DNA of 54,768 bases from an uncultured Gemmatimonadaceae bacterium (GCA_963829055.1 CAWHHI010000015.1:1-54768); one strand, 5' to 3'; counted from the first letter of the stretch, positions 7,227 to 35,433 are shown. A program made the numbers and translations. Notes: generated from the sequence alone by a model not told the origin.

Positions 7227-7340
7227 GGTAACGGTCCTCCTCACGCCTGATGGGAGGGAGCTGACACGCCCCAACGCGGAGCCGAGGCGACGGTGCCTCG
7301 CCGCAGTCTCGAGTGTCGAAGACAACTTGGGGGACGAGCC

Positions 7341-8233: not shown

Positions 8234-8261
8234 CGGCTCACGGAGTAGAACCCCCGGCGCA

Positions 8262-8435
8262 TCAGGCCGGCCGTCGCTCGACGTTCTCGAGGATGACTTC
8301 GGGATGCCGGTCGGCCACCTGCAGAAGGCGCAACGCAGCGCCTTCCGGCACACGCTTCTCCTGCTCCCAGGAGCGCACGGTCTCGGCGCTCACATTCAGT
8401 GCCTTGGCGAACACCGTCTGCGAGAGTGCCAGGGA
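8262..8435 (-). pseudogene. C-terminal Xre-type HTH remnant (antitoxin-like)
   Basis: LALSQTVFAKALNVSAETVRSWEQEKRVPEGAALRLL; no plausible N-terminus or cognate toxin. Confidence 0.55.
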
Positions 8436-8587
8436 GGACGTCGACGAAGTGGAGAGCGATGCGCATCGGCCAATCGGCAAAGAACGCGGAATGCAATGCG
8501 TTAGGCATGAAGCTGTGACGCTCGGTACCTGGTAATCGTGTCGCGTGTGACGTCTACATCGGCTGTCCATCTTATTGGAGGAATGCA

Positions 8588-9102: not shown

Positions 9103-9124
9103 TGTCAGGTCCTCGTGTTAGTGT
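9103..9124 (+). promoter_or_regulatory. PafBC/RecA-NDp-like promoter
   Basis: TGTCAG-gtcctcgtgt-TAGTGT = TGTCRG-N10-TA-N3-T, 37 nt upstream of ATG 9162. Confidence 0.65.
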
Positions 9125-9161
9125 GTCGGCCGGTTCGCGACACCTCCCCGCTGAGCCATGA

Positions 9162-12100
9162 ATGCCCGATTCGCAGCACCGCCTTCTCTTCACCGGCCCG
9201 TTCCACGCCGACCACCGCGCACGTGCCCTCGACGCCCTGTGCGCCCGGGCTGACGCCAACGCCCGCGACATCCTTTATATAGTCGCGTCCGCGGCGGCCA
9301 AGCGCCGGGCAATCTCTGACCTGCTGGCCCGCCGCGACGCGATCTTCGGGTTCCACGTCATTACCCTCCGCGGCCTCGCGGCCGAGCTCGCGCGCCGGGC
9401 TCACGCCAAGGAGCCCGCCCGCGTGAGCGGCGTCGTCGATGAGCTGCTCGTCGAGCGCGAGATCCGCTCTGCGTCCGGCAGCCGATTTCGCGGCGCCACG
9501 CCCGTTAGCGGCCTCGCTGCGAAAGCGGCATCCACGATCGACCTCCTCGAGCGAAACGGCGCCACCCCTTCGGCGTTTAGGGGTTTCCTCGACCAGTCTG
9601 CCAATGTGGGCGACGGAGCACGCATGCTGGCGCAGGCATGGGGCGGTCTCGCGGTCAAGCGGCCCCACTATGGCCGAACGGAAGCCGGCATGCTCGCCGA
9701 GGCTGTCGAGTTGCTCCAGGTGAACGCCGGTGTTCTCAATGGGCTCGACGTCCTCGTCCTCGAGGACCTGTCGCTGCTGACTGCAATGGAGTGCGCGGTC
9801 GTCCGCTCGCTCGTCGCACGTGCGCCGGCGCACGTGATCGCGTCGCATGGATACGTTGGGCAGCTCGCGGATGCGCCGTCCTCGCGTTCCCTGCGAAGTC
9901 TTCGCGAGCTCGCGTCCTGGACTGAGACGCGTTGTGCACCGATCGACGACAATCGGACCGCATTGCTCCGCCGACTCTTCGCTGCGTCGGACACGACTTC
10001 TGCTGTCGCGTCGTCGAATGGCACCGTGCCCGCGATCCGCATGACCCGGCTCGAGTCCAACGGCGACCTCGGCGAGGTTCGCACCGCGGCGCGCGTCGTT
10101 AGGCGACACCTGGATGCAGGCGTCGCCCCGGAACACATCGCGCTCGTCGCCCACGGCGCTGGGGGGCGCTATCGTGAGCTCGTCCGCGAGGTCTTCGGCG
10201 CCGCCAGAATCCCTGTCGCCGTCGCGCTTCCACGAACGCTCGCCGAGACGGGGATCGGGAGTGTGCTGCTCCAGCTCCTCGAGCTGGCGATCGTTCCCGA
10301 ACGCATGACTCGCGAGACGTCACTCGCCGTCGCCCGTGCGCCGCACGTGGGCCTTCGCACGCGGCAGCGCCGACCGTCTTCATCAGCAGGTCGTGAACGC
10401 AGGGTTTCTCGGGTTGGACGGATGGACCGAGCTGGCCACGAAGACGTTAGGCGAGCACGCTGCGAACCGCGTGAATCGTCTCAAGCGCGCGGTCGCCACG
10501 GCGCGTAGCGGCTTCGAGTCGGTGTCGTCCCCAGCACAGGCGGCGCGAGTGGTCCGGCAGCTCGCGAAGGAGCTTCACCTCCTGAACAACGCATACTTCG
10601 AGCGCCGGCGCTCGGCTCGTAGCTCGTACTCGCCGCAGCGCGCCGATGGCGTGGACGCCCTGTCGTCGATGACCGCGCTCGCGGTACGCGAGGACAGCCT
10701 GGCCTGGGAAGCGATCGTCACCGACAAGAACTCGGTGCTCGATACCACCGTGCCCACGATGCTCGAGATCGATCGCGTCTCGGCAGGCAAGTCCGGGCTG
10801 GAATACGCTGCAGCGTGGCTCGCGATGCTCACTCGCGTCATGCACTCGGACACGGTGACGCCTGAACGCGCGCCGGCGCACGCGGTGCAGTTCCGTGGCA
10901 CGGGCCCGGGCTGCGAAGCCCCGGCGCGCGTCACGATCGTGCTCGGCCTTCTCGAGAAGATCTTCCCGCGCCAACCACGCCAGGATCCTTTCCTCGACGA
11001 CGAGCTCCGGACTGCGCTCTCGGCTTCGTTCGGCTGGCAGCTGCCGACAACCGTGGACGCGGTCGACCGCGAGCGCGAATGCTTCATCCGCGCGATCTCC
11101 TCTGCCACCGAGTCCCTCTACCTGTCGTACGCGGCGACTGATGCCGAGGGGAGGCCGGGAGTCAGGTCGTTCTTTGTCGATGACCTGCAGGCCGCGGTCG
11201 GAGAACAACATCCGATCGGCGTCGAACACTCCGGCGCGACCACGGCGATTGCCAATGTGAGCGATGCGGTGAGCGCGAGCGGACTGCTGACCGCGGTCTC
11301 GCACGACGTGTGGCAGTACCTCCCGCGCACGACCGACGTGACTGGGCGTCGCGGGGCGGCGTTCCGCGCGCTCGATGCGTTGGCGCGTCGCGAGCAGGAT
11401 GTCTCGCCCGTTAGGCACGGGCGTCGCGTGAGCCAGACGCCGGATCTTGCGGGCGTGCTGCCCGTGGATGCGCCGCATCTCACGCTGCGACTGAGCGCCT
11501 CACAGCTCAAGACGATCTCGCACTGCACGTACGAGCACTTCGTCGATAAGGTACTGGACCCGAGCTCCATCGCCGCGCCGGAGTACAACGCGCCTGACGA
11601 AAGGCAGCCTCATACATGACGCCATCATGCACTGGGCGACGGCGCTCGATGGCTGGAACGCGAGGTGAGGCAGCGCTGACGGAGATCGACGAATGGGTAC
11701 GCGGCCGGGTCGAGCAGTGGTCGCCAGCGCAGCGCGGCACCACGAAGACGGCGCGAACGATGGCTGCGGATCTCGAGCGTCTGAACGAGTTCCTCCGCGA
11801 GGAGCTACGCGACGCGGAGACGCCTGGCGTCGGGCGTCCGACGTTCGCCGAGCTGGCATTCGGCGAAGAGCCGAACGCTGCGCATGGTCCCCGTGATGCG
11901 GCGTCGCGCGTCGAGACATTTCCCCTTCAGCTCAAGACGTCGACGGGCCTGGTGACGGTACAGTTCCGCGGGTCGATGGATCGCGTGGACGTCGTCACCG
12001 TCGACGATAGGCAGTACGCGGTCATCATCGATTACAAGAGTGGCAAGAATTCCGAGTACTACGCAAACGCCATGATGAGGGGCGAGGACCTGCAGCTTCG

Positions 12101-12421
12101 GCTGTACCTGCTCGTCCTTCAGGAGTTCTGGAACATCACGCCGATCGGTGCGCTGTACCTGGGCTTCGGCGACGGCGTTAGGCGTGGAGCCATACGAGCG
12201 GACTTCGCCGATCGCTTTGCCGGCATGGACCGGAGCGACGTGAAGCGCCTCGCGGCGCCGGACTGGCAGGGATTCGTCGACGAGACACACGGACTCGTCA
12301 CGCGCGCTGGTGGACCGTCTCGTCAGGCTGGACGTGACGCCGGCGCCGCGCGACAACAAGTGCGGTTTCTGTAGAGCTCACTCCGGTCTGCCGGTACGAT
12401 CGCTGGGCGCCGGCATCATGA
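9162..12421 (+). CDS. AddB/AdnA-like inactive-helicase plus PD-(D/E)xK nuclease subunit (frameshifted)
   Basis: ORFs 9162-10508, 10336-11619, 11616-12374. Motifs LGLLEKIFP, ERECFIRAISSA..L.LSY, LSASQL...HC.Y.HF, ELAFG, RGSMDRVD, IIDYKSG, QL.LY, terminal CGFC...C. ATGA overlap with the next gene. Confidence 0.85.
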
Positions 12422-15400
12422 CTACACCCATCACGGTGCCGCAGGCCCTCGCGCCGACGCTGGATCGACGTTCCAGTGACCGCCACGCGTTCTCCGCTGA
12501 ACAGGACGCTGCCATCCGCGCCCGCGCACCACTCGTCGCGCTCTCCGCCGGCGCCGGGTCGGGCAAGACGACGGTCCTCGTCGAACGGTTCATCGACCTC
12601 GTCCACCACGACGGCGTGTCGCCGCTCGAGATCCTCGCGATCACGTTTACCGAGAAGGCGGCGGCGGAGATGAAGGAGCGCATCGTCCGCCGCTTCGAGG
12701 AGCGGAAGGACGTGGCGAATCGTCGTCAGGCAGAGGCGGCGTACATCTCGACGATCCACGGCTTCTGCGCGCGAATCCTGCGCGAGAATCCGCTCGCGGC
12801 TCGCCTCGACCCGTCGTTCCGCGTCATGGACGAGCTGACGCGGAGCGTTTTCCTCGATGAGCGACTGGAAGAGCTCTACGCGGACGACTGGTTCGCCGGG
12901 CACGTGGAGTTGTTGAGCAAGCGATTCGGCTTCGAACGGCCGGCGCTGGTCGAGATCATCGAGGAAGCCGCGTTTCTCCCCGCGGAGTTCGGAAGGCTGG
13001 GCGTGACCGAAGAGAGCTTCACCGTCGAGGAACACATCGCGGGTGCGATGCGCCGTGTCGCGGAGCACTGGAGCGGTCAGTGGCAGCGCGCACGAGCATG
13101 GCTCCTCGACGCCGAAGCGATGATCGTACGCGCGGAAGTGAACGGACCGACGCGACGACAACAGCACGACGCGATGTGTGGCATCATCCGGGAGCTGGCC
13201 CATACCGAGGCGATTGACGCCCGCCTCGCTGAGCGGTTTGGCCAGTGCGCGGCATTTACGGCCGGCGCGGTAGATCGTGAGCTGTTGAAGGCCGTGCTGG
13301 ATCCGTTGAAGAAGTTTTTCAAGGACAGCATCGAAGTCGATTTCGCGGAGCTCGAGCGTCAGGAGCGGGAGGTGTTCGCTCCACTCAAGGCGAAGATCTA
13401 CGAAACGGCGATGGAGACTCGCCGCAAGTACGAGGAGTTCAAGCGTCAGCACGGCTACCTCGACTTCGAGGACATGCAGCGCCGCGCGTTGGAGCTGCTC
13501 GACGACGACGCTGTACGGTCGGCGTACGGAAAGCGCTTCACGCACATCCTGCTCGACGAAGCGCAGGACACGAATGATGTGCAGATGCGCATCGTCCAGC
13601 GGTTGCAGGACGGCCGACAGAGTCTGTTCGCCGTGGGCGATGTGAAGCAGTCGATCTACGGATTCCGGGGCGCGAACGTCGAGATCTTCCAGCGACTCTG
13701 TCATTCCGGGCGCAGCGACGATTCTTCTCTCCCCACCGCGTCTACACTCTCTCTCGTCGACAACTATCGCTCTCGCGCAGGTGTCATCGACGTCGTCAAC
13801 GCTGTTGGCGAACGGTTATGGAACGACGGCTCCATCGAGTTCGAGGCGCTGTTGCCGCAGTTCCCCTACGAGCCGCGCGGCAGCGATCCACGTGTCGAGC
13901 TCTGGGTCATGGAGAAGCGCAAGAGCGAGACCGACGATGAGGCGAAAGACTCGGCCGACGACGTCCGCGAGCGCGAAGGTGTCGCCCTCGCCGTCGTGGA
14001 TCCGCTCCGCTGTCGATGGCGATCGGGGTTTCGCGGTCTACGATCGCATCACGGAGACCTACCGACGCGTGCAGTACGGCGACATCGCCATACTAAGCAA
14101 CTCGCGCCTGCCGTTCCCCGCGTACGAACGTGCGCTCGCCGAGCTCGGGATTCCGTTCGTGAAGGATGGCGGGCGCGAGTTCTTCCTCGGGCGCGAAGTG
14201 CAGGACCTGCTCGCCGCGATGCGCGTCATCCACAACCCGCTGGACGACGTGAACCTGCTCGCCACGCTGCGGTCGCCACTCTTCGGCTGGGGCGACCGCG
14301 ATCTTGTGCGGCTTCGCGTCGCCGCGGGTGAGGGGTCGTTGTGGGACGCGCTACCCCGCGTCACACCTAACGACGCAACAGCGGCGCCCGATACACTCGC
14401 ATCGCTTCGCACGCTGCGTCAGTATGCGGCGGTCGTGCCGCCGGTCGGGCTGATTGAAATGATCTGCGAGGTCACGGCCTATCGCGCCGCGCTGCTCTGC
14501 CTTCCGCGCGGACGCGCACAGGTCGCGAACATCGACAAGCTGATCGAGTTCGCGCGCGTGACCGCGACGCTCGATGGTCCCTCGCTCGCGGCGTTCGTAC
14601 ACAGGGCCGAGTTGGCGGAGAAATACCTGGCGGCTGAGACGGATGCACCGATCGCGACCACGGGTGACGATGTCGTCACGATCTCGACGATTCACGGCGC
14701 GAAGGGGCTGGAGTGGCCAGTCGTGATGCTCGCCGGTCTCGATAGTGACTTCGCCCGCCTCGACACGACGTCCCGCTACCTGGCGGCGGAGGGCGCGCTG
14801 ATCCTTCAATACAAGGATGAGCACGGCGAGCAAGTGCGGTCGGCGGGAAACGCGCCGCTCATCGAGGCCGCGAGGGCACGCGAGGAGGCGGAGGCGCGCC
14901 GACAGCTCTACGTCGGAATGACGCGCGCACGCGAACGGCTGATCCTGAGTGGCCGCTACTCGTATCCGAAAACGCCGATCAACAAGAATGGCCTCGCCGC
15001 GCCGATGGACTGGCTCGCCATAGAGCTAGGCATCACCGCGCCGGGTACCGAGGCAACCATTGTCAGGCTCGGTGCGGCCGAGCTGCTCGTCGACTTCGTG
15101 TCACCCGAGCGGGTCGAGACGCTGCGCGCTGCCGCCGCTGGCCTGCGAGACGAGCGGCTCGCCGCCGCGAGGCAGGCGGTGCGTGACGGGCTCCCGGTCG
15201 AGTGGGCAGAACGCGTCGCCATCCGAGGTGCCCGCAGCGGTCGCGCGAGTGTTGGGCGATCAGGCCACTCCTTGGGCAACGCAGCGAGCGCTGGCGATGA
15301 CGACGGTCACGCAGCTCGTGTATTTCCTCCGCTGCCCGATGGTCTACTACTTCGACCTCGTGCTGCAGATCGATGAGCATCCGCGTGGGCGAGGTAAGGC

Positions 15401-16049
15401 GGCAATGACTGCCGCGAAACGAATGAGCGCGCTGGATCGGGGGACGCTCGTTCACGAGCTGCTCGAGCGCGCTGATCTGACGGCGATACCGAGTGCGGAG
15501 ACCGAGAGACTCGTTGGTGAGCTCACAGACATCGAGCCTAACGAGCGATCGCGGATCGCGGGCATGCTGGGCAACGTCCTCGGCGATCCGCTTCTCGAGC
15601 GGGCACGCTCGGCCACTCGGCTCGAGCGCGAGTATCCGTTCTATCTCGAGATCGGTGGGTCGACGGTGCAGGGCGTGATCGATCTCGTCTTCCGCGACGC
15701 CGAGGGTCGAGGCGTCGTGGTGGACTACAAGTCGAATGACCTCGCCGCGCCTGGTCGCCTGGCGACGCTGACGGAGCTGTACCGTCCGCAGATCGAGCTG
15801 TACGCATTGGCGGCGCGTCGTGCTGGTCTCGTCGAGCCGACCGAGGGAACACTGTACTTCCTCAACAAGGCGCAGGCGGTGACTACACCGCTGGACGCCG
15901 AGAAGCTCGATGCCGTCGAGGAGCAGGCAAGCGACACGTTAGGTAGAATCGCCCGCGGTGCGTGGGACACACAGCCTGGCGAGAAATGCCGGAGCTGCGG
16001 CTACCGGAAGCGCGGCTATTGCGAGGTCGGGAAGGCCTTCAAAGAGTGA
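12418..16049 (+). CDS. addA: AddA/AdnB-like UvrD (SF1A) helicase plus nuclease subunit (frameshifted)
   Basis: AGAGSGKT, ITFTEKAA.EMK, STIHGFC, LDEAQDT, VGDVKQSIYGFRG, NYRS, TIHGAKGLEW, YVGMTRARE, QGVIDL, VVDYKS, terminal CRSC...C. Confidence 0.88.
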
Positions 16050-17213
16050 GTGTGCTACAGCGGCACCTCGTCTCCGTCTGGAATCCGTCGTACGAAGCCG
16101 ACGCGATGGACCAGCATCTGTCCGTCCTCCTCGCGAATGCGGCGCGGTTCCGGGACAAGAAGTGTGACGAGGAAGATGTGTACGTCTGGTGGGGCAAGAT
16201 CCGCTCGTCGAATCGTCAGCAGCCGATGCCTCACCTCGACGACATCCTCGCGATCGACGCCGAGCTCGGTGAGGACGGAGAAACGGTCGCCGCCGACCGT
16301 GAGGTTCACCTCTACCTCACGGACTACCGTTCGCTCTACGTCGCGCACGTCGCGGAGATCTCCACGGACGATCAGCGAGACGACGAAGGGCACGTGCCGG
16401 CGTTCTACGGCCAGAGGCGAGTTCAGCTTCGACTGCTGGTTTCAGCTCTGGGACATGAGACGCCTCGTCGCGAACGATACACCGGGCGTCGTCGAGGAGC
16501 TCAAGCAGCTTCGCAACACGCGCTACAACGACCGGCCCGTGTCGATCTACGGCGGGATGGTGGATCTCCCGCTCATCGTCACGCGTGCCGACGGCGCACG
16601 CTGGTTCGATCGCGCCGTGCGCGCCGCGCTCACCGACGGCCGTTTCTGGTGCGAGTTCGACGCCGAACGCAGTGGCGTTGGTGCAATGGAGCGCGAGCTC
16701 CGCGAGAACCTGTTCGGCGCGACGGCGTGGAATGCGTTGGATCCGGCGGCGAGGTCGTTCATCGCGTCCGCCGAGAAGATGTTTCGTGACCATCGGCACG
16801 ACGCCGCGTTCGACTTCAGCAGCGTCGTGATCGATTACGCGAAGGCGTTCGAGGTGCAGGTGAACAGCCTGCTCCGGCGGGCCATGGTCGGTGCCAAGCG
16901 CAATGTGCAGGTCGTCAATGTCGGTGGGAAGTCGATCGATATCATGACCGCGCCGCCGTTGTCGTTAGGCCAGCTCGCGCGAGCGATCGCGGACAACAAG
17001 CCGCTCAACGACTTGCTCAAGCGACGGCTGGATCCGCGCGAGTGGGTCGCGATCTCGCTGCCGCCGATTCTCGAGAACCTTGCCGCCTACCGAAATCCTG
17101 CGGCTCACGCTGACCGGATTACTCGCGAGCAGGTCGTTGCGCTGAGAGACAGTCTCGTTGGTGTTGGGTGTACGGGCAGGCTGGTGGAGCTCGGCAAAGT
17201 GAGGGTGGTCTGA
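16046..17213 (+). CDS. HP0729-like protein with C-terminal HEPN-like RxxxxH motif (one frameshift near 16410)
   Basis: GTGA overlap with the addA-like stop. WNPSY...QHL.VL...WGKIRS, LYLTDYRSLYVA and SIYGGM..LPL resemble the HP0729 family (recognised from memory). C-terminal RNPAAH. Confidence 0.6.
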
Positions 17214-17215
17214 GT

Positions 17216-17259
17216 TGTCATCCCGAGCGGAGCCGCGCAGCGGCGGAGTCGAGGGATCT
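17216..17259 (+). repeat. Half copy of the GTCATYCCGAG palindromic repeat
   Basis: tgtcatcccgagcggagccgcgcagcggcggagtcgagggatct. Confidence 0.75.
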
Positions 17260-17354
17260 GGTCGAGTGTGATAACAATGTCGCGGAGGAGAGTCATCTCC
17301 AATGCCCTGGCGCTCGATCACTCGCCCCGCGGCAATGCGGGTGAACCAAGCCGA

Positions 17355-17376
17355 CGGGGAGGCTTTCGCCTCCCCG
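17355..17376 (-). terminator. GC-rich hairpin downstream of the lasso precursor
   Basis: cggggaggc-gaaa-gcctccccg on the minus strand, about 12 nt after the stop; no clear U tract. Confidence 0.55.
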
Positions 17377-17387
17377 CGGCCAGAACC

Positions 17388-17501
17388 TTACGGAGCGTAC
17401 CGGTGAAACGGGTTCGCGCCATCGCCGGGGGTGAAATCGCCGCCACCGAGCGTCAACTCGCGCAACGTTCCCAAACGCTCGAGCTTGGGTGCCTCGTACA
17501 T
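17388..17501 (-). CDS. Lasso-peptide-type RiPP precursor (37 aa)
   Basis: MYEAPKLERLGTLRELTL-GGGDFTPGDGANPFHRYAP: YxxPxL leader motif, Thr at -2, Gly1, Asp9; AGGAGG RBS just upstream. Confidence 0.8.
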   Translation of the reverse strand: MYEAPKLERLGTLRELTLGGGDFTPGDGANPFHRYAP

Positions 17502-17873
17502 CGAGCCCTCCTGAGTGAGGGGTTTCCGGGATTTCCCGGCAAAGCACGTCCGCCATGCCGGAGGCGCACCCTGCGGCAATGCCGGACGTGGTGGACGTTT
17601 CATCGTCCGTGGTGGTGCACAAGCCTTGCCGCTGCCACTCTAATGCGCCGATTAGCCCACGTCGGCGTTTTCGGCGCCAGGCCATGCCATTCGCGTACTG
17701 CACGTTATTGCCCACTCCTGATCATCCGACGGAGCGTTAGGCACGTCCGACGCTCGGCCACCCAAATCGCCGCAGGCGACAAAGCGCCGAGCTCGGCGAT
17801 CGAACCCGGCTGTCTGAGGGCACGTCATCTGCAGGCTCGTGCGACTCGCGTGACGAGACACAGGCAAGGAGGT

Positions 17874-18188
17874 ATGATGGCAAATCGCGACAATCTCAGC
17901 GGCATCACCGACCACAGCGTTACCGGCGACTGGGGCACGGAAGAGCAGTACTGGCGCAGCAACTTCAGCACGCGGCCCTACGTGAACGCCGACCGCGGGT
18001 TCGACTTCTACCAGCCGGGGTATCGGTACGGGTACGAGTCCGCCACGCGGTATCGCGGACGCAACTGGAACGACGTCGAGAGCGATCTGCGGACGAGCTG
18101 GGACCGGTACGAGCATCGCGGGCAGGGCACGTGGGAGAACGTGAAGGATGCAGTGCGAGACGCGTGGAATCGCGTCACCGGCCGCTGA
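17874..18188 (+). CDS. Small conserved hypothetical protein (Trp/Tyr/Arg-rich)
   Basis: AGGAGG RBS; YWRSNFSTRPY...YQPGYRYGYE...WNDVESDL...WENVKDAVRDAW. Confidence 0.75.
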   Translation: MMANRDNLSGITDHSVTGDWGTEEQYWRSNFSTRPYVNADRGFDFYQPGYRYGYESATRYRGRNWNDVESDLRTSWDRYEHRGQGTWENVKDAVRDAWNRVTGR

Positions 18189-18209
18189 CCGGGATCAGTC
18201 GTTAGGCGG

Positions 18210-18237
18210 GCGGCCCACCATCCATGGTGGGCCGCCC
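18210..18237. terminator. Hairpin between convergent genes
   Basis: gcggcccaccat-cc-atggtgggccgc. Confidence 0.55.
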
Positions 18238-18272
18238 ATACCGCGATGCCAAGGTTGGAAAGCGCCGATCGG

Positions 18273-19133
18273 TCAGTTGATCGGCCGTGGCTCGCCGTAG
18301 ATGAAGTCGTCCATCACGACAATGTCGCGCTTCACTCCCGCGCCCTTCACGTTGTCGAAGTTGTCGACGCCGATCGGAGTGTCGCCTGCGGTGATCCGAA
18401 CGCGCGCCACGACTCCCGCGTCGAACTTCGCGCCGATGAACGAGAGACCCCTGTCGTCACTGCGCCGCGGCGCCGTCAGCTTGAGCAGCTCGGTTCCGGC
18501 GGCGTCGAAGTACTGGATGGTGGTGGTCGAATCCGCCAGGCCGACATCCGCGAACACCGCGCCGAAGCCCGTCACCAGCGCCGGCGTATCAGACCCGGCG
18601 ACGACGAACCTCACGTCGGTCACGGTGCTGTTCCTCGCCGTGAAGAGTTTGCGCGGGCTGAAGGCCCTGAACTCCTGGGCATAACTCGGGTTCACGTCAA
18701 TGAACCCAATGTCGCTGATCCGGAATAGCTGCCCCTCGGTCGTGAGCAACACGCCACGGGGAGAAACGGTGTTGAAGAAATCGCCGGGGAAGGCATCGTT
18801 GTTCGTCACCGTCGCCCCCACGATGGGGGCGTCCCAGTTGATCTCACGACGGTCGCCCGGCTGTTCTCCCGCGACGTTCGGATTGAGAACGGGGCCGAGT
18901 AGCGAGCGATACTCGTTGACCGCGGGGGCAATGTCGCCGGTCGCGCTCACGATCTGCACGTCGTGCCGCTGCTTGACCGTATTCGGATCCGATTGTGGCG
19001 CAAGCTCGATCGCGCTGCTCTTCGTGCTGCTCACGCGGCCGGGCTCGGTCACGACGTCGCCAGCGTCACTACAGCCGGCGAGGATGATGGCCGCGCCTAA
19101 CAACGCGGCTCGAAGTCCGTTCATCTGCTGCAT
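18273..19133 (-). CDS. Hypothetical lipoprotein
   Basis: Lipobox ILAGC; RREINWD...FGAVFADV...DIVVMDDFIYGEP; GGAG RBS. Confidence 0.7.
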   Translation of the reverse strand: MQQMNGLRAALLGAAIILAGCSDAGDVVTEPGRVSSTKSSAIELAPQSDPNTVKQRHDVQIVSATGDIAPAVNEYRSLLGPVLNPNVAGEQPGDRREINWDAPIVGATVTNNDAFPGDFFNTVSPRGVLLTTEGQLFRISDIGFIDVNPSYAQEFRAFSPRKLFTARNSTVTDVRFVVAGSDTPALVTGFGAVFADVGLADSTTTIQYFDAAGTELLKLTAPRRSDDRGLSFIGAKFDAGVVARVRITAGDTPIGVDNFDNVKGAGVKRDIVVMDDFIYGEPRPIN

Positions 19134-19281
19134 GATTCTTCTCCATGAATTCACCACCACGGGTTCGATTGCCGGCCCGTGAAGCGGATACTTCATGGTG
19201 GCCTCGCCCTCACCCCGCGTCGGGCGTACCCTCCATCACGCAGCGGAATTCACGATGCGGACACCGCGACCACGAACCGGT

Positions 19282-19925
19282 CTACTTGGACCCGTTGTCG
19301 CGCAGCATCAAGGAAAGCGAGCCAAGGACCGGCACGTGGCTCTTGAGCATGACGAGCGTGCGCGCGGAGTCGTCGGTGAAGTACACCTCGGCGTTGCCGC
19401 CCTGCCCGAACAGGCCGCTCGCGTTGGTGATCGTCGGCTGGACGACGATCGTCTCGAACGTGCCGGCCGGCACCGTGATCGTCCGCTTGCCGATGACGCG
19501 GATGATCACGTCACGGCCCGACTTGAAGTAGCGCGGGATCGTATCCACGTCGCCGACGCGGAGCGGCAGCGTGCGGACGTAGAACAGGAACGACACGTCG
19601 TCGAGCGGCTCGTCGGTCGAGAGCGAGTCGACGCGACCACTGTGCTTCTCCACGAACGTTCCCTGCTCGGGGGCGATCTCGTAGTGCCGCCTCCGCGTGT
19701 GCCCGACCTCGCGTTGATTCTGCACGAACCGGCGCGAGGTGAAGCGATGTGGTCGAACCAGGAATCGAACTGGTCGTCGACCTTCGCGAACAGCAGCCCG
19801 CCGGTCACCTTGAGCGAGGCGTGCATGGTGTTGCGCCCGTCGACCGAGTCCGCGCCAATGACGTCGAATGACCCTCTGCCGACCCGGTGTCCCTTGAGCT
19901 CCACGTCGTAGGTCGCGTGCTCGAG
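19282..19925 (-). pseudogene. DUF3108-family protein, 5'-truncated and frameshifted
   Basis: TYDV...VG.G, KVDDQFDSW, PLDDVSFLFYVRTLPL, ITVPAGTFETIVVQP, VYFTDD..R..V; no signal peptide or start recognisable. Confidence 0.7.
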
Positions 19926-20268
19926 CGCAACTCCTCGCGGCATTGCGCCGGGATGAGCGGTCGGGCTGGTGATTCGGACGACGAGCTCGCTCGACGCCTC
20001 TCATGACCTGCACGCAGGAAGTCCGTGATCTCGACCGCGCGGGTCCTTCCGCGCGACGTGCAGACTCGGTACTGATCGTTGAGCGTGCGCTTCCGGTCCT
20101 GTCACCCCGCAACTCTCCCACCAAGTGCCGGCGGGCGCAACGACTCGCGAACTGCGGATCACGTCGAGCTTGGGTGGGCGACGCCCAGAGCGGTCCGGGC
20201 AGACGCGCCGCGCGACTTGGTACCTTGCCTCGCGTCCGCCGACCGCGGTCGCGGAACGAACGGATCAT
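19926..20268 (-). pseudogene. Decayed higB-higA (killer/antidote) remnant
   Basis: Fragments in shifting frames: MIRSFRDRG, KLDVI, LRGDRTG, NDQYRVC, VEITDF, then PTAHPG; compare intact higBA at 37919-38516. Confidence 0.6.
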
Positions 20269-20305
20269 GGCGCTGCCGGAGTCAGGCCGGCACGTCTCAT
20301 CGAAC

Positions 20306-20324
20306 TATAACGGATACCGTTATA
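20306..20324. promoter_or_regulatory. Perfect palindrome, probable HigA-type operator
   Basis: TATAACGG-ata-CCGTTATA upstream of the higB remnant; shares the TAACG..CGTTA core with 38525-38539. Confidence 0.55.
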
Positions 20325-20469
20325 CACGCCAATTTCCGATTGGAAGCGATCCGCCAGCATGGCGTTGGCGCGCCTTCATTTGCCATCGAGCTGGCCTACA
20401 GGCCATCGTTCCAGCGTGGCGTCACACAGCGTCGCCCATTCGGCCTCACGTGATCCGTGACGGTGCCCA

Positions 20470-21066
20470 ATGCCTCAGTACTTCGACTTCACCGTCTCCC
20501 TCCAGGACGTCATCCCACGCCCGTGGCGACGCTTCCTCATTCGATCCACCTCCCGCTTCGCCGCTCTCCACTCGGCCATCCAGGACGCGTGCGGCTGGAC
20601 CAACTCGCACCTGTACCTCTTCCGCGCTGCCGGCGACTATCAGCACGACGTGATCGCGGGCCTGCGGCTCGAGGACGGCGACGACGACATGAACGGCCCG
20701 GTCCCGAGCGCCGAGCAGACACACGTCGCCAGGTACTTCGGTGTGGAGGGGCGCACGACGTGCCTCTACGTCTACGACTTCGGCGACGACTGGACGCACG
20801 ATGTGCAGCTCAACGACATCGTGACGCTGCCGGATCGCTTCACGCGCCGCTTGTTAGGCGGCGAGCACGCGTTTCCGCCGGACGATTCGGGCGGCGCGCA
20901 CCGCTACACGCTCATCCAGAAGGCGCTTCGAACCGGGAAGGATCCGGAAGGGCTGCTCGAGTGGGCGAGGGGTACGTGGGACTGGACGGGCGAGTTCGAT
21001 CTCGAGAAGACACGGCGTGCGTTCGACAAGGCGCCGAGGGCGTCAAGCGGTATCCAACCCTCGTAG
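20470..21066 (+). CDS. Plasmid pRiA4b ORF-3 family protein
   Basis: PWRRFLI..LHSAIQDACGWTNSHLYLF, YVYDFGDDWTHDV, GEHAFPPDDSGG. Confidence 0.85.
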   Translation: MPQYFDFTVSLQDVIPRPWRRFLIRSTSRFAALHSAIQDACGWTNSHLYLFRAAGDYQHDVIAGLRLEDGDDDMNGPVPSAEQTHVARYFGVEGRTTCLYVYDFGDDWTHDVQLNDIVTLPDRFTRRLLGGEHAFPPDDSGGAHRYTLIQKALRTGKDPEGLLEWARGTWDWTGEFDLEKTRRAFDKAPRASSGIQPS

Positions 21067-21172
21067 CGCGGCGAGTTTACGCTTCGTCCTCCGCCCTTCG
21101 GGCTGGGTGCGGGGTTTGCCTGACTCGGCCCGCGACGAGTTGGTAGTAATCGTGGCGACACCCGGAGGTACC

Positions 21173-21565
21173 ATGGCCGACGACATGGGCATTCTGCGCA
21201 CCGACGTGGAAATCGAGTCTCTGCTGCGAGAAGGGGACCGGCGACTGCTTCGCGATGTCCTGGTCGACACCGGGGCCGAGCTGTCGTGGGCGCCAGCGGC
21301 CGTCCTCGAGTCGCTTGGCATTACTCGCCGCAAGGCGATCCGCTTTCAGCAGGCCGACGGAACGGTTCTCGAGCGATGGGTTGGTTTCGCGATCGTTCAC
21401 GCGGGCGGGACGTTTACGAATGACGAGGTCGTGTTCGGCGAGCCCGGCGACCTGGTCTTGCTCGGCGCGCGCTCGCTCGAAGGACTGAATCTGAAGGTGG
21501 ATTTGGTTGGCAAGCGGCTGGTGTCGGCCGGGCCAATGCTCGCCGCCGCGGGACTAGCGGACTGA
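21173..21565 (+). CDS. Retropepsin-like (clan AA) aspartyl protease
   Basis: GGAGG RBS; LVDTGAE, ADG, LLGARSLEGLNL.VD. Confidence 0.8.
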   Translation: MADDMGILRTDVEIESLLREGDRRLLRDVLVDTGAELSWAPAAVLESLGITRRKAIRFQQADGTVLERWVGFAIVHAGGTFTNDEVVFGEPGDLVLLGARSLEGLNLKVDLVGKRLVSAGPMLAAAGLAD

Positions 21566-21578
21566 ATCGCAGTGTGTC

Positions 21579-21714
21579 GTCATTCCGAGCGGAGCCGCGA
21601 AGCGGCGCGGGTGCCCTCAGGGCGCATGAGGAATCCTCGCTGTCCGCGCCAGAGAGGCCCCTCTACTGCGGACGCACGGATTCCTCGACTCGCCTGCGGC
21701 TCGCTCGGAATGAC
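21579..21714. repeat. GTCATYCCGAG palindromic repeat (REP/MITE-like), full copy
   Basis: gtcattccgagcg...gaggaatcc...ggattcctc...cgctcggaatgac. Confidence 0.85.
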
Positions 21715-21763
21715 ACGTGCTATCGGCGCTCCGACGTGCTCCACTAGTACCGGCGACGCGCAC

Positions 21764-21785
21764 TGTCAGACCCCTCTGTTACCAT
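21764..21785 (+). promoter_or_regulatory. PafBC/RecA-NDp-like promoter
   Basis: TGTCAG-acccctctgt-TACCAT = TGTCRG-N10-TA-N3-T, 26 nt upstream of ATG 21812. Confidence 0.65.
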
Positions 21786-21811
21786 GTGAGCGTCCCGATC
21801 GGAGGCGCTCC

Positions 21812-23107
21812 ATGCAACACAAGGTTCTCGTCGACTACGAGCTCGCCGTCGCGCAGCAGGGCTTCATCGTGCGCGCGATGCTCAAGCTGGAAGGCCAGGC
21901 ACCCACGCGCGACAATCGCATCCCCCTCAACCTCTCCGTCGTCCTCGACCGCTCCGGCTCCATGGCCGGTGAGAAGCTGGCCGCTGCGCGCGATGCGGCC
22001 GCGATGCTCATCCGCCGGCTCCACCCTAACGACACCGTCAGCGTCGTCGCCTACGACGACGAAGTGATCACGGTCGCGGAGCCGGCCACGGGTGACACCC
22101 AGGCGTCGCTGCCGCAGCAGGTCCAGGCAATCCACCCCGGCGGCAGCACGAACCTGAGCGGCGGCTGGCTGCGCGGCCGAGAGCTGGTCGCTCGAGCGAA
22201 ACGTGAAGGAGGCGTCAATCGCGTCGTCCTCCTCACCGACGGACTCGCGAACGCCGGCATCACCGCGCCCGACCAGCTCCTCGGCCTGTGCCGGACCGCG
22301 TGCGGCGCGGGGATCACGACTACCACCATCGGCTTCGGCGCCGACTACGACGAGAAGCTCCTGCGCGGCATGGCCGACGCGGGCGGCGCGAACACGTACT
22401 ACATCGAGCGGCCCGATCAGGCCGCCGACGTGTTCGCCGAGGAGCTGGAGGGACTGCTCACGCTGTGTGCGCAGACGGTGGCGGTGGAGATCCGGCCGTC
22501 GGATGCCGTGACGCTCACCGCGATTCGGCATCAGTACCCCACGACCACGTTAGGCACGGGCGGTGCACGGCTCGAGCTCGGGGATGTCTACGCCCGCGAG
22601 CCGAAATCGGTGCTCGTCGAGTTCTTCGTGCCGGGACTTCCCGACGCTGGGAGCGACGAGCGCGACATTGCGATCGCGCAGATCACGCTCACGGCCCACG
22701 TCCTGACGGAGGGCGGCGGCGTCGAACGGCAGGAGATCGTCTTCCCGATCGTCACGCGTCTCTCGGCGGCGGGACACGCGGAGCCGGAAGTGCGGCGCGA
22801 GATGCTGCTGCTCGATGCAGCGAAAGCTCGCGAGGACGCGCTTCGCATGCGGGACGAGGGCGACTTCGGCGGCGCGGCCTCGATGCTTCGTGCCATGTCA
22901 ATGAAGATGGCCATAGCTCCGCAGCAGCTTGGGCCGGAGTTCGCTATGGAGCTGCGAGAGCAGGCGGTCGACCTCGAAGATGTCGCGAAGCAGTTCGCCC
23001 TGTCGGACGTGACGGAGGAGGACGCGAAGTATCTGGCGCAGCGTGCGTACAACGCGCACCGTAGCAAGCGCGCGTACGAGGCGAAGTTGTCTCGGCGGAA
23101 GGATTAG
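21812..23107 (+). CDS. von Willebrand factor A (vWA) domain protein
   Basis: GGAGG RBS; PLNLSVVLDRSGSM (MIDAS), GGSTNL, VLLTDGLAN, TIGFG. Confidence 0.9.
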   Translation: MQHKVLVDYELAVAQQGFIVRAMLKLEGQAPTRDNRIPLNLSVVLDRSGSMAGEKLAAARDAAAMLIRRLHPNDTVSVVAYDDEVITVAEPATGDTQASLPQQVQAIHPGGSTNLSGGWLRGRELVARAKREGGVNRVVLLTDGLANAGITAPDQLLGLCRTACGAGITTTTIGFGADYDEKLLRGMADAGGANTYYIERPDQAADVFAEELEGLLTLCAQTVAVEIRPSDAVTLTAIRHQYPTTTLGTGGARLELGDVYAREPKSVLVEFFVPGLPDAGSDERDIAIAQITLTAHVLTEGGGVERQEIVFPIVTRLSAAGHAEPEVRREMLLLDAAKAREDALRMRDEGDFGGAASMLRAMSMKMAIAPQQLGPEFAMELREQAVDLEDVAKQFALSDVTEEDAKYLAQRAYNAHRSKRAYEAKLSRRKD

Positions 23108-23233
23108 TCATTCCGAGCGAAGCGCCGCCAGGCGCGGAGTCGAGGAATCGCGATCATACTGGTAGAGGGGTCACTCTATCCTGACAGTCGCGATTCCTCG
23201 ACTCCGGCCCTTCGGGCCTGCGCTCGGAATGAC
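23107..23233. repeat. GTCATYCCGAG palindromic repeat, full copy, between vWA and pafB
   Basis: gtcattccgagcg...gaggaatcgcga...tcgcgattcctc...cgctcggaatgac. Confidence 0.85.
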
Positions 23234-23257
23234 ACGCTCCACCAACCGCACAATACT

Positions 23258-24505
23258 GTGACTCCGAACGACCCTCTTTTCGATGATGACGACGATCCTC
23301 CCCCGGATCGCAGTCTCACCACGAGCGAGCAGAAGCTGCAGCGCTGGGTCGATCTCCTGGCGGCGCTGCTCATCCGCCAGCGTCATGCACCGTTCGACGA
23401 GCTGGCCAAGGACGTTCCGGGCTACGACGTCGCGAACGCGCAGCGCGACAGCGTCATGCGGACGTTCGAGCGCGACAAGGACGAGCTCCGCCGCTTCGGC
23501 GTGCCGATCGACACGGTGAAAGACGGCGAAGGCGACACGCTCGGCTACCGACTCGATCGCAAGGCGTTCTACCTGCCGTACCTCGTGGTGTCCGGTCACG
23601 AACGTGCGGCGCATGGGCCGCGGAAGGTGGACCACGACGGCTATCGCGCGCTCCAGACACTCGCCTTCGAGCCGGACGAGCTCGACGCGATCATCCAGGC
23701 CGCGGTACGCGTCCGCTCACTCGGCGATCCTACCCTCGCTCGCGAGGCAGAAGCCGCCATCCGGAAGCTCGCGCTCGACCTCCCGTTAGGCGCCGTTCTC
23801 GCGGACGTCGCGTCGCCGATAATGGCCGAGAAGCGTCTGATCAAGTTCATGCGGACCGAGGCGCCGAAGGAAGCGGCGTCGGCGTCATTCTCGCGCAAGT
23901 TCCAGGCGCTGATCGTTCCGCCAAAGCGTCAGGCAGATCCCCCGGTCTTCGATCGCTTGAGCGACGCACTGGCGCGGCGGAAGGTCGTCAGCTTCGACTA
24001 CTTCGCGATGGAGCGCGGCGAGCAGTCGCGCCGCACCGTCGAGCCGTATGGCCTGTTCTTCGTGAGCTCGCACTGGTACCTGGCGGGTCGTGACTCGGGT
24101 CGCGATGCGCTGCGCAACTTTCGCCTGAATCGCATCTCGAGCGTCGAGGTGAATTCGAAGAAGTCGCAGTCCGCCGACTACGAGATACCGGACGACTTCT
24201 CGTTGCGCGATCACGCGCAGGCGCGCGAGCCGTGGGAGATTGGCGATGGCGAGGCGACTGCCGCGATCGTCGAGTTCACCGCGACGACGGGTGCGACACA
24301 GGCCGCGCTCAGGCTCGGACGTCCGGTCGAAGGTAACGAGCATCGTCGTCAGTTCGACGTTCGTCGCCCTGATGCATTCGCGCGGTGGCTGCTCTCGTTC
24401 GGCGGTGATGCTCGTCCCATCGAGCCAGCCGAAGTTCGCGCGGCGTACGAGACTGCGGCGTCGGAGACGCTTGGCCGGTACGCGAGAGTCCCTAACGATG
24501 AGTGA
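23258..24505 (+). CDS. pafB: PafB-like wHTH-WYL-WCX transcriptional regulator
   Basis: KLQRWVDLLAALL...VPGY...RTFERDKDELRRFGVPI matches the PafB N-terminus; RRTVEPYGL, HWYLAG, FRLNRI. Confidence 0.8.
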   Translation: MTPNDPLFDDDDDPPPDRSLTTSEQKLQRWVDLLAALLIRQRHAPFDELAKDVPGYDVANAQRDSVMRTFERDKDELRRFGVPIDTVKDGEGDTLGYRLDRKAFYLPYLVVSGHERAAHGPRKVDHDGYRALQTLAFEPDELDAIIQAAVRVRSLGDPTLAREAEAAIRKLALDLPLGAVLADVASPIMAEKRLIKFMRTEAPKEAASASFSRKFQALIVPPKRQADPPVFDRLSDALARRKVVSFDYFAMERGEQSRRTVEPYGLFFVSSHWYLAGRDSGRDALRNFRLNRISSVEVNSKKSQSADYEIPDDFSLRDHAQAREPWEIGDGEATAAIVEFTATTGATQAALRLGRPVEGNEHRRQFDVRRPDAFARWLLSFGGDARPIEPAEVRAAYETAASETLGRYARVPNDE

Positions 24506-25461
24506 GACAGCCGCCGCGCGCCTCCGGCGCATCCTGCTGCTCATCCCGCATCTCGCGGATGGCGACGAGCATCGCGTCGCTGACCTGGCTCGCGCCGTTG
24601 GTGCCGACCGTGAGACGCTCGTGCGCGATCTCGAGACCCTGGTCACGCGCGATGACGACCCGGGCGGGTTCGTGCCGGGCGTGCAGATCTACTTCACGGG
24701 TGACCGCGTGTCGCTCACGAGCACCCCATTCCGGCGTCCCATGCGACTGACGGCCTCGGAGCTCGGCGCGCTGGAGCTCGGCCTCGCAATGCTGAGGGCG
24801 GAGCGTCCGCCTGACGAGCGGAAGGCGGTGAACGGCGCGCTCGAGCGGCTGCGTGCGGCGATGGTGCACATTCCGTCGGACGCAGTCGCGGCGGGTCAAC
24901 GCGAGGCGTCGCTTGCCGGACCCGGGCGACGCGACGACGCTCGCGACGGTGCAGCGCGCTATGGCAGCGCGAAGGAAGATCGCGATTACGTACCGTGGTG
25001 GCTCGAAGGAAGCGGCGACGGATCGTACGGTGCAGCCATACGCGTTGGTCGTCGCGTCAGGCAGCTGGTATGTCCTCGGACACTGCGAGTCGAGCGTCGG
25101 TATTCGATCGTTTCGACTGGACCGCATCGAGCGAATCGAGGAGCGGGCGGAGTCGTACGAGATTCCGGCGACGTTCTCGGTGGACGAGCACCTGAGCGAC
25201 CGCAAGGTGTTGCGCGCCGGACAGCCGCGGTGGATGCGCGTGCGCTACTCGCCCCGCATCGCGCGGTGGATCGCCGAGCGGGAAGGGAGGGAGCTGGAGC
25301 CGGACGGGTCGTTGACGATGGAACACCCGCTCGCCGACATCCAGTGGGGCGTCAGGCATGTGCTGCAGTACGGACCGGACGCCGAGGTGCTCGAGCCAGC
25401 GGACGTGCGCGACGAGCTCACCCGGCGTCTCGCGGGGCTCGTCGCGCGCACGCCTGCGTAG
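24498..25461 (+). CDS. pafC: PafC-like wHTH-WYL-WCX regulator (frameshift near 24925)
   Basis: RLRRILLLIPHL...RDLETL...RPMRLTASE; RTVQPYAL, WYVLGHC, FRLDRI, LQYGPDAEVLEP; overlaps the pafB stop. Confidence 0.8.
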
Positions 25462-25489
25462 TCGGTCGTCGAGCCAGTATAGCCAGCGC

Positions 25490-25944
25490 CTAACGCCGAC
25501 GCATGCGCACGAAGATGATCCCGCCGCGTTGCGTCGAACCGTGCAGCAGGAAGGCGTCGACGGCGGTGATGTAGTGAATCTCCGCGACGGCGTCGGCCGG
25601 AATGGATAGCAGCGTCGACACCGGGCCGGCTACGAGGCCGTCGATGTACACCGTCGGGTCGGCTGAACCCTCCACCGCGTCATGGTCGCGGCGCAGGAAC
25701 TCCGGCCGCAGCCGCGAGACGATCTCGTAGACCGAGTTCGTGGGAAACGACCCGAGCTCCGCCGCGGTGATGGTGTGGCTGCTCGGCCTCAGGCGGGCCT
25801 GGCGCGCGCGAGCGATGACTCGGACGAGCCGCCAAGGCTGCTGGAGAACTGAGTTGGCCGGGCGCAGCCGGCCCCCGCCACGACGAGCACAACGAACGTG
25901 AGTGCGAGCGACCAGCGGCCGACTCGCGACGCATATGAGTGCAT
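25490..25944 (-). CDS. Small TonB-plug-like lipoprotein (frameshifted)
   Basis: Lipobox-like AGAGC; ITAAEL...YEIVSRLRPEFL...VYIDG...IPADAVAEI...GGIIFV. Confidence 0.65.
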
Positions 25945-35296: not shown

Positions 35297-35433
35297 GTCA
35301 TTCCGAGCGGAGTGTCATTCCGAGCGGCGAAGTCGAGGAATCGCGATCGTCCGGATAGAGAGCCCTCTACGCGTACGGTCTCGATTCCTCGACTGCGCCC
35401 ACTTCGTCGGCACGACTGCTCGCTCGGAATGAC
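35297..35433. repeat. GTCATYCCGAG palindromic repeat with duplicated left end
   Basis: gtcattccgagcgg at 35297 and 35314; right end cgctcggaatgac. Confidence 0.85.

Follow-up and report, generated by a model that had tools for sequence, protein, structure and literature searches.

The question raised by the locus described here is whether the DNA-damage response that is governed in mycobacteria by the WYL-domain activator PafBC has a counterpart in a different bacterial phylum and, if so, which genes it would control there. The stretch of DNA that was analysed, referred to below as the window, is 54,768 nucleotides (nt) long and constitutes the entire contig C15 of genome G000, a 7.78-Mb assembly of an uncultured Gemmatimonadaceae bacterium with 20 contigs, a G+C content of 66-67% and a marker completeness of 85.9%. 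It carries a pair of adjacent pafB-like and pafC-like genes together with two exact copies of the promoter motif TGTCAG-N10-TAnnnT, one of which precedes the addB-like and addA-like genes of a helicase-nuclease and the other a gene for a protein with a von Willebrand factor A (vWA) domain, behind which pafB and pafC are found. We consider it likely, if some way from certain, that the window holds a PafBC-type module for the response to DNA breaks in a Gemmatimonadaceae bacterium, and probably one that induces itself.

The comparisons with relatives are based on a profile scan with a PafB-like protein alignment as the query and one genome per species, which returned at least 573 related stretches; the locus statistics refer to the best 80 of these, covering 586 kb from about 80 genomes. 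The titles of these best 80 loci read nearly throughout Gemmatimonadaceae, Gemmatimonadales, Gemmatimonadota or Longimicrobiales, the exceptions being one metagenome-assembled genome (MAG) labelled Kuenenia and three loci labelled 'uncultured bacterium', and a contig of G004, a genome of the same genus, is identical across 7,080 nt to a Gemmatimonadaceae bacterium record. The best 120 homologues, like the best 80 loci, all come from close relatives. Because the related loci are nearly all from Gemmatimonadota and the G004 contig matches Gemmatimonadaceae, the source organism is, judging from this kinship, a member of the Gemmatimonadaceae and not an actinobacterium, in agreement with the probable Gemmatimonadota origin proposed in the first-pass annotation of this DNA.

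In mycobacteria, the motif tGTCgg(N10)tA(N3)T with its -26 element and the mechanism of sigma adaptation are established (PMC8635444), and an earlier consensus, tTGTCRgtg-8nt-TannnT, already allowed for an A at the fifth position (PMC5656591). The mycobacterial gene that corresponds to addA, adnA, is reported to be controlled solely by PafBC (PMC8682763), which is itself described as the sole heterodimeric WYL regulator reported (PMC11804915). The mycobacterial facts from which the first-pass annotation had argued, namely the motif, known as RecA-NDp, and adnAB as a target, accord with what PMC8635444 and PMC8682763 state.

Two copies of a PafBC-type promoter motif

The pattern TGTCAG-N10-TAnnnT has exactly two matches in the window:

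9103..9124, + strand: promoter 1, with the -26 element TGTCAG at 9103-9108, the spacer GTCCTCGTGT and the -10 box TAGTGT at 9119-9124
21764..21785, + strand: promoter 2, with the -26 element TGTCAG at 21764-21769, the spacer ACCCCTCTGT and the -10 box TACCAT at 21780-21785

Both sites had been picked out by eye in the first-pass annotation, which saw no further match, and the pattern scan recovers the same two positions and adds none, even when the element is widened to TGTCRG and both strands of the window are covered. The accompanying estimate of about 0.2 chance matches per window turns out to be fair to conservative, as 100 dinucleotide-preserving shuffles give expectations of 0.02 for TGTCAG and 0.17 for TGTCRG, and two matches were reached in 0 of the 100. 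The exact motif occurs six times in G000, two of the six being those in this contig, 12.7 kb apart. The trinucleotide TGT, likewise pointed out at the outset, does stand immediately 5' of the -10 hexamer at both window sites, which are the sole two such sites in the 7.78-Mb genome.

A distance of 37 nt separates the end of promoter 1 from the ATG at 9162 with which the addB-like gene begins, and promoter 2 ends 26 nt before the ATG of the vWA gene at 21812, which has a GGAGG at 21801, 6 nt 5' of it. A -35-like hexamer, sought 16-18 nt upstream of the -10 box, is present at neither window site. A sigma-70 scan of positions 20900-25800 returned a lone candidate, ATGACA-17-AATACT ending at 23257 (0.4 expected), which abuts the start codon of pafB and was given no weight.

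The PafB-like and PafC-like proteins

The presumptive regulators are encoded by two genes in the unit that follows promoter 2:

23258..24505, + strand: pafB-like gene, 415 amino acids (aa), intact; winged helix-turn-helix (wHTH), linker with an insertion, WYL and WCX
24498..25461, + strand: pafC-like gene; HTH_PafC, WYL and WCX, its start overlapping the pafB stop by 8 nt

These two genes account for the only two WYL domains in G000, and they form an adjacent paralogous pair in which Pfam finds WYL and WCX in both members and HTH_PafC in the second, which is the architecture of PafBC; a tandem pafB-pafC pair is present in 25 of 61 related genomes. The identity comparison was made against solved structures only, among which the PafB-like protein matches best the PafBC of A. 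aurescens (3e-26) and PafB of M. smegmatis (6e-26), with PafC reached only at 7e-4 and with no match to DriD at an E value of 0.01 or better. For the PafC-like protein, the intact 324-aa orthologue of G004 was used, which scores 74 bits against the PafC half and 18 bits against the PafB half of the fused protein in structure 6SJ9; its further matches are to M. smegmatis PafC (3.4e-14) and PafB (4.5e-9), DriD (1e-5) and, weakly, CapW (8.5e-5 to 8e-4) and BrxR (8e-3). The naming of pafB- and pafC-like WYL genes at 23258-25461 in the first-pass annotation is thus upheld by reciprocal B-to-B and C-to-C structure matches and by the HTH_PafC model. None of the NCBIfam models matches either protein, and the JGI pipeline has attached the label "proteasome accessory factor B" to many of these proteins. 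A search for Pup_ligase in G000, which is 85.9% complete, gave no match, and hence no pafA-pafBC operon.

The similarity extends to the residues that contact DNA in the mycobacterial proteins. The recognition helix R-x-FERDK, which is the same in M. smegmatis PafB, occurs in all 100 loci for which an HTH match was obtained, which comprise 97 distinct sequences. Residues R68 and R72 of the PafB-like protein, invariant in 13 of 13 aligned relatives, align with R46 and R50 of M. smegmatis PafB, the arginines reported to recognise the GTC triplet within the -26 element (PMC8635444). The WYL residues described as binding single-stranded DNA (ssDNA) in M. smegmatis are R181, Y196, R204, R208, R211 and R214 of PafB and R201 and R204 of PafC (PMC11804915); R259, Y274, R282, R286, R289 and R292 of the PafB-like protein align identically to the former set, and R213 and R216 of the G004 PafC-like protein correspond to the latter.

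The PafB-like genes of three related loci, L037, L041 and L042 (in G027, G046 and G044, respectively), each have one in-frame stop, a TGA in G027, which could be a sequencing error, the mark of a pseudogene or recoding. Alignment A1 was made without the rows of these three loci.

Conservation of the motif and of its spacing

Relatives within the family have the genes of the cluster side by side, with the order vWA-addB-addA-pafB-pafC in G004, addB-addA-pafB-pafC in G003, and the same four genes followed by an HP0729-like gene in G009. Upstream of addB, TGTCAG-N10 is found at the same place in all five cases (G003, G004, G006, G009 and the window), and it continues as TACCGT in G003 and G004, TACGTT in G009 and GATCTT in G006. 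All eight close vWA orthologues have TGTCAG or TGTCAC-N10-(T/G/C)AnnnT on their 5' side, and three distant vWA paralogues are without the signal. Directly 5' of pafB the motif stands, for example, in G001 and G028. When the relaxed pattern TGTC[AG][GC]-N10-[TCG]AnnnT was sought within 200 nt of gene starts in non-redundant DNA, it was found upstream of addB in 5/5, of vWA in 10/10 and of pafB in 24/96 cases, the background being 0.010 per 200-nt window. The ten vWA sites (TGTCA[GC]-N10-[TCG]AnnnT) span several genera and two families, and the motif is kept in front of vWA orthologues down to 40% protein identity, the flanks being unrelated; the flanks carry 0.0-0.3 bits of information, and positions 7-10 ('aCCC'), which are not forced by the pattern, carry 0.4-0.9 bits.

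The spacing is equally specific. Across the 586 kb, the strict TGTCAG element has nine matches at N10 on the pafB strand and a single one on the opposite strand, as against 0-1 at each of N6-N9 and N11-N14; for TGTCGG, the counts at N10 are six and three versus 0-2 at other spacings; and the relaxed motif has 86 matches on the pafB strand at N10, compared with 25 for N7 and N13, the spacings that are in phase with it. The genes behind the signal in the best 80 loci are those for AddB-like, vWA, PafB-like and HP0729-like proteins, with single cases of a HerA-like ATPase, a metallophosphoesterase and an ARPP-1 protein and several open reading frames (ORFs) without a family. The proposal that this organism uses the same promoter code as mycobacteria, with the motif kept upstream of orthologous operons, is therefore supported by the addB (5/5) and vWA (10/10) sites and by the strict 10-nt spacing. 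A TGT adjoining the -10 box is not seen generally; it is present 5' of addB within the genus, but at only 1 of the 10 vWA sites. A distant vWA paralogue in locus L034 (G009:C136) has immediately 5' of it, at about 14150-14250, a tandem array of GAACGCCGG units.

The genes behind the two promoters

Besides pafB and pafC, the two units comprise the following genes:

9162..12430 (end approximate), + strand: addB-like gene, with a degenerate helicase-like body and a C-terminal PD-(D/E)XK nuclease (Pfam, NCBIfam)
12415..16049 (start approximate), + strand: addA-like gene, with UvrD helicase, UvrD_C and PD-(D/E)XK nuclease (Pfam, NCBIfam)
16050..17213, + strand: HP0729-family-like gene (NCBIfam NF041917 at 3.6e-21, below the cut-off), a conserved companion of the cluster
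21812..23107, + strand: vWA-domain gene, 431 aa, intact, with vWA in the N-terminal half (Pfam) followed by about 225 residues without a family

The nuclease genes were classified through their intact orthologues in G004, where AddA contains UvrD-helicase, UvrD_C and PDDEXK_1, and AddB contains PDDEXK_1 only. Going by this domain content, the nuclease is of the AddAB type, with one motor, rather than of the AdnAB type; all matches to the NCBIfam addA and addB models fall under their cut-offs. The first-pass annotation had left the choice between the two types open in placing an AddAB/AdnAB-like operon after the motif at 9103, and the gene content that it gave is confirmed by Pfam. The HP0729-like gene stands 3' of pafC in G009 and G026, and its product is 45% identical (E 2e-67) to that of a gene in locus L114 which is preceded by TGTCGG-N10-TATGCT; a protein atlas search with the gene returned zero matches. 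The vWA protein shares 77% identity with its G004 orthologue, itself located directly upstream of addB, and the protein atlas places it in generic vWA clusters only, of about 420 aa and commonest in Actinomycetota. In M. smegmatis, a 'von Willebrand factor' protein, MSMEG_5511, is listed as 1.6-fold lower in the pafBC deletant (PMC5656591, Table 1).

The vWA cassette is flanked by two copies of an element that resembles repetitive extragenic palindromes (REP) or miniature inverted-repeat transposable elements (MITE):

21579..21714, no strand assigned: REP/MITE-like element, copy 1, palindromic, just upstream of promoter 2
23107..23233, no strand assigned: REP/MITE-like element, copy 2, between vWA and pafB, without a T-run terminator

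The family has the terminal inverted repeat GTCATTCCGAGC...GCTCGGAATGAC and is represented in G000 by 205 paired copies of 72-175 nt and 669 terminal 12-mers; the RNA fold of copy 2 has an energy of -95.3 kcal/mol (z -10.0). G004 has one such element at the same place 5' of pafB, and the REP-like elements may mark a rearrangement that split the cluster, with vWA shifted from upstream of addB, as in G004, to upstream of pafB, as in G000. In G000, pafBC has no motif of its own and sits behind vWA across copy 2; no terminator-like sites were found in 20900-25800. Because pafBC lacks its own site and the separating element lacks a T-run, the simplest reading is that pafBC is transcribed by read-through from promoter 2. 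A further copy of the family lies at window positions 35297-35433, and a lone end at 48097. Joints in read contigs that link the two copies flanking vWA have short sides of 22-37 letters and were taken as cross-matches of the repeat family. The RNA run X19 contributes two short contigs on pafB, 23668-23818 and 23837-24052, with two differences each; they were rejected as a sign of pafB expression, as the library may hold DNA and the contigs show no transcript ends.

Between the AddAB and vWA units, at 20470-21565, the window has a PRiA4_ORF3-like gene (E 1.8e-34), overlapped by an ORF for a retropepsin-like aspartyl protease, both of which are missing from the contiguous cluster of G004.

Broken reading frames

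Several of these genes are interrupted in the window. The addB-like gene is broken near 10365, 11591, 11660, 12300 and 12373, so that residues 5-1089 of the intact 1092-aa G004 orthologue align to it in five frame pieces; addA has breaks near 13993 and 15207 (three pieces; its G004 orthologue is a single frame of 1210 aa), and pafC has one at about 24913-24935 (two pieces). The HP0729-like gene is broken near 16409, its first third translating to a low-complexity and probably out-of-frame sequence. In relatives, addB, addA and pafC are each in a single frame. Short-read contigs of near-identical strains, assembled from other metagenomes and at most a few percent different, lack one base at 11591 (X4, X5), 11660 (X4), 13994 (X4) and 16409 (X4, X5), and one gap each is seen in the contigs that run across the break near 10365 and the one in pafC (for the latter X4, 1327 nt, 24097-25424). 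In G000, the essential gene rpoB (C19:47991-52509) is also split, rpoC being whole, and so is the second copy of lexA (C16:429982-430584). Since rpoB and one lexA are likewise split, since the assembly reaches 85.9% completeness in 20 contigs, and since single bases are missing in the short-read contigs, the frame breaks of addB, addA and pafC appear to be indels of the assembly. Other probable breaks in the window, suggested by several overlapping ORF pairs on one strand, include the ORFs 7293-8213 and 7510-8535 and the TPR genes at 5169-7544.

Extent of the proposed regulon

The first-pass annotation had gone beyond the two units and proposed a PafBC-controlled DNA-damage regulon, to be recognised by enrichment of the motif upstream of recA, uvr, ruv, ssb and radA. 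This part of the proposal found no support. In G000, uvrA, uvrA2, uvrB, radA, ruvA, recA and both lexA copies have neither the exact nor the relaxed motif within 350 nt upstream, so that of nine repair genes checked only ssb carries it, and recA is without it in all 29 genomes, whether the pattern used is strict or relaxed. The ssb site, TGTCGG-N10-TACTTT at C16:221896-221917 (L150/L151), lies 36 nt before a GTG start and is kept throughout the genus (7/7 genomes); of the 28 genomes examined, the 21 from outside the genus lack it, nine of them having pafBC, and in some genera outside, ssb has a plain TTGCGG- or TTGACA-N17-TATAnT promoter instead. Canonical promoters of the phylum, of which the TTGACA-N17-TATAnT form is an example, differ in appearance from the motif. 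As a conserved target ssb was rejected, because the site is confined to the genus and TGTCGG-N10 shows no genome-wide excess; it may be due to chance or to a gain at the genus level. In G000, uvrB lies 1.8 kb upstream of ssb on the same strand. The remaining exact sites in G000 precede genes for an oxidoreductase, a kinase, a coiled-coil protein or a methyltransferase, or fall inside an amidohydrolase gene. A weight matrix built from 22 pattern-selected sites gave 9 matches versus 3 for the control at a threshold of at least 16 bits, and 4 versus 1 at a threshold of at least 18 bits; it was overfitted and was dropped because the first window site was outside its best 40 in G000.

As the classical repair genes lack the motif and a genome-wide excess is absent, the circuit looks local and small, comprising the nuclease, the vWA gene, the HP0729-like gene and the regulators in 2-4 units. 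G000 has two LexA homologues (C16:988627-989229 and the split copy at C16:429982-430584), and since LexA is present, a classical SOS response probably runs alongside the PafBC-type module.

A model of the circuit and its alternatives

In the model that we favour, and which draws on homology with the mycobacterial system, the pafB-like and pafC-like proteins would most likely pair as a heterodimer. Resection of broken ends by AddAB would generate ssDNA, which, by analogy with mycobacterial PafBC, would bind to the WYL domains and allow induction upon damage. At promoters devoid of a -35 box, the heterodimer would form a bridge from region 4 of the housekeeping sigma factor to the -26 element (TGTCAG here; TGTCAC or TGTCGG in relatives), which is placed exactly 10 nt upstream of the TAnnnT -10 box. 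With one signal-bearing unit running from 9103 through addB and addA, perhaps including the HP0729-like gene, and another from 21764 through vWA, pafB and pafC, the sensor would induce itself and its signal-producing enzyme, along with the vWA and HP0729-like proteins. Because AddAB, the producer of ssDNA, and the sensor share one signal, the result would be a positive feedback.

A number of observations weigh against this model. The breaks in addB, addA and pafC could possibly be those of pseudogenes private to this strain. The motif stands directly upstream of 24 of the 96 pafB starts, many pafB genes being located behind addA or other genes. In G055 a site of the same kind, TGTCAC-N10-CATCTT, precedes a vWA orthologue, and no WYL domain was found in that genome, which is 100% complete by markers and consists of 340 contigs, the one with vWA measuring 3.6 kb; nor was one found in G006, which is 77% complete and whose contig ends inside addA. 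The site pattern fixes TGTC and the A and T of the -10 box, the invariance of which is thus by construction. Genome-wide, the exact motif shows no excess over a control pattern (6 versus 5 matches in G004, 2 versus 3 in G009, 1 versus 2 in G026, 2 versus 5 in G016 and 1 versus 3 in G047), and in G000 there is no excess of N10 over other spacings for TGTCAG, TGTCAC or TGTCGG, so that a regulon cannot be picked out by the motif on its own. Finally, the PafB residue 67, being Arg or not, and the sixth base of the element, being C or G, are distributed as 15, 3, 3 and 9 among 30 loci, an Arg before R68 going with C; only 2-3 phylogenetically independent pairs underlie this raw association (sign test p = 1).

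Other explanations of the locus can be given. The motif could belong to the promoter class of another factor, an alternative sigma factor or activator, with the PafBC-like pair having some other target or working as CapW-like or BrxR-like repressors. The G055 site without a detected WYL domain would fit that, as would the description of characterised WYL regulators beyond Actinobacteria and Caulobacter, most of which repress adjacent genes; we nevertheless regard it as unlikely, given that the 22-nt geometry with its GTC core is that of the PafBC motif (PMC8635444), that the recognition helix is of the mycobacterial type in every locus with an HTH match, that the sites cluster round the pafBC genes on the pafB strand across the phylum, and that a non-palindromic element in place of a missing -35 box fits an activator and not an operator. 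Nor does PADLOC detect a defence system at this locus, its matches being generic ones to WYL, UvrD and Cas4. A broad regulon as in mycobacteria, with recA, uvr, ruv, ssb, radA and many more genes, of which the window would show two members, is a quite improbable reading in view of the recA and repair-gene results, of the absence of the ssb site from three quarters of the genomes, of genome-wide counts that equal those of controls, and of the unrelated genes at the other exact sites in G000. What can be said for it is that ssb does carry a site throughout the genus, that only the GTC core is described as strongly conserved in actinobacteria (PMC8635444), so that degenerate sites could escape the patterns, and that G000 is incomplete. 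The low genome-wide count of six, near that for other spacings, and the sequence that close relatives share by descent would allow the two window sites to be a chance pair or functionless inherited sequence; the shuffles, the retention of the motif 5' of vWA amid unrelated flanks, and the N10 specificity across about 80 genomes leave very little room for this.

If the favoured model of a PafBC-type break-response module holds, its meaning would lie in part beyond this organism. In the literature, PafBC figures as the master activator of the response to DNA damage in mycobacteria, and sigma adaptation is discussed as a mycobacterial or actinobacterial feature (PMC8635444); the same pair, helix and 22-nt geometry throughout Gemmatimonadota would imply a mechanism that functions against another RNA polymerase (RNAP) background and is much older or more mobile than thought. 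A bolder proposal, which we put forward tentatively and at somewhat less than an even chance, is that PafBC sigma adaptation is an old cross-phylum promoter code which Gemmatimonadota have kept as a closed, self-amplifying circuit for double-strand breaks, with the vWA and HP0729-like proteins as new repair or signalling factors. Both proteins can be named as candidate break-repair factors, and the compact wiring, in which the sensor, the nuclease and two further proteins share one signal, makes for a simple natural system in which the triggering of such a switch can be studied. The idea could be tested at the bench because cultured Gemmatimonas species may carry the module, the loci L072 and L100 bearing such names in their MAG titles.

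Comparison with known systems

Among the WYL regulators described to date, CapW, BrxR and SiwR (the last from M. smegmatis and likened by description) are similar in being wHTH-WYL(-WCX) regulators of neighbouring genes, some of them sensing ssDNA; CapW, BrxR and their kin differ in being homodimers, mostly repressors acting on palindromic operators, and in their association with phage-defence islands, defence genes being undetected here. DriD of Caulobacter crescentus (PDB 8TP8) is likewise an ssDNA-activated, SOS-independent activator of the WYL-WCX type, but it acts as a homodimer at a target site of its own and matches the PafC-like protein only, at 1e-5.

Another parallel by description is the pafB-pafC-cyaA locus of Myxococcus xanthus, a non-actinobacterial pair tied to the UV response, for which a PafBC-binding sequence is claimed in 24 of 51 genes (PMC9705874). 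The novelty attributed to the present locus in the first-pass annotation, that of a PafBC-type system outside the Actinobacteria, is thus not complete as an idea; the literature searches found no paper, among those listed, tying PafBC, or WYL and DNA damage, to Gemmatimonadota or Gemmatimonas. Unlike the pair described here, that of M. xanthus is LexA-repressed via an SOS box and coupled to an adenylate cyclase, and the account in PMC9705874 reports neither a linkage to AddAB or vWA nor a conservation of the promoter across species.

The greatest likeness is to actinobacterial PafBC (M. smegmatis and M. tuberculosis; the fused A. aurescens protein of PDB 6SJ9; the RNAP complex 7P5X), with which the locus shares adjacent paralogous wHTH-WYL-WCX genes, the R-x-FERDK helix with its GTC-reading arginines, the ssDNA-binding arginines of the WYL domain, the TGTC(R)G-N10-TAnnnT promoter without a -35 box, and a two-subunit end-resecting helicase-nuclease as a target, adnAB there and presumably addAB here. 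It differs in that the element is preferably TGTCAG or TGTCAC here, the sixth base often being C in relatives, and TGTCGG there, in that some 80 additional residues separate HTH from WYL in the PafB protein, and in that the Pup ligase and the pafA-pafBC operon were not found. A further contrast with mycobacteria concerns the wiring: recA and the classical repair genes are off the signal here, which would serve 2-4 local units as compared with about 150 genes, and pafBC itself, the levels of which are reported as unchanging in mycobacteria (PMC6789036, PMC7617703), stands behind the signal in G000 and in relatives such as G001 and G028.

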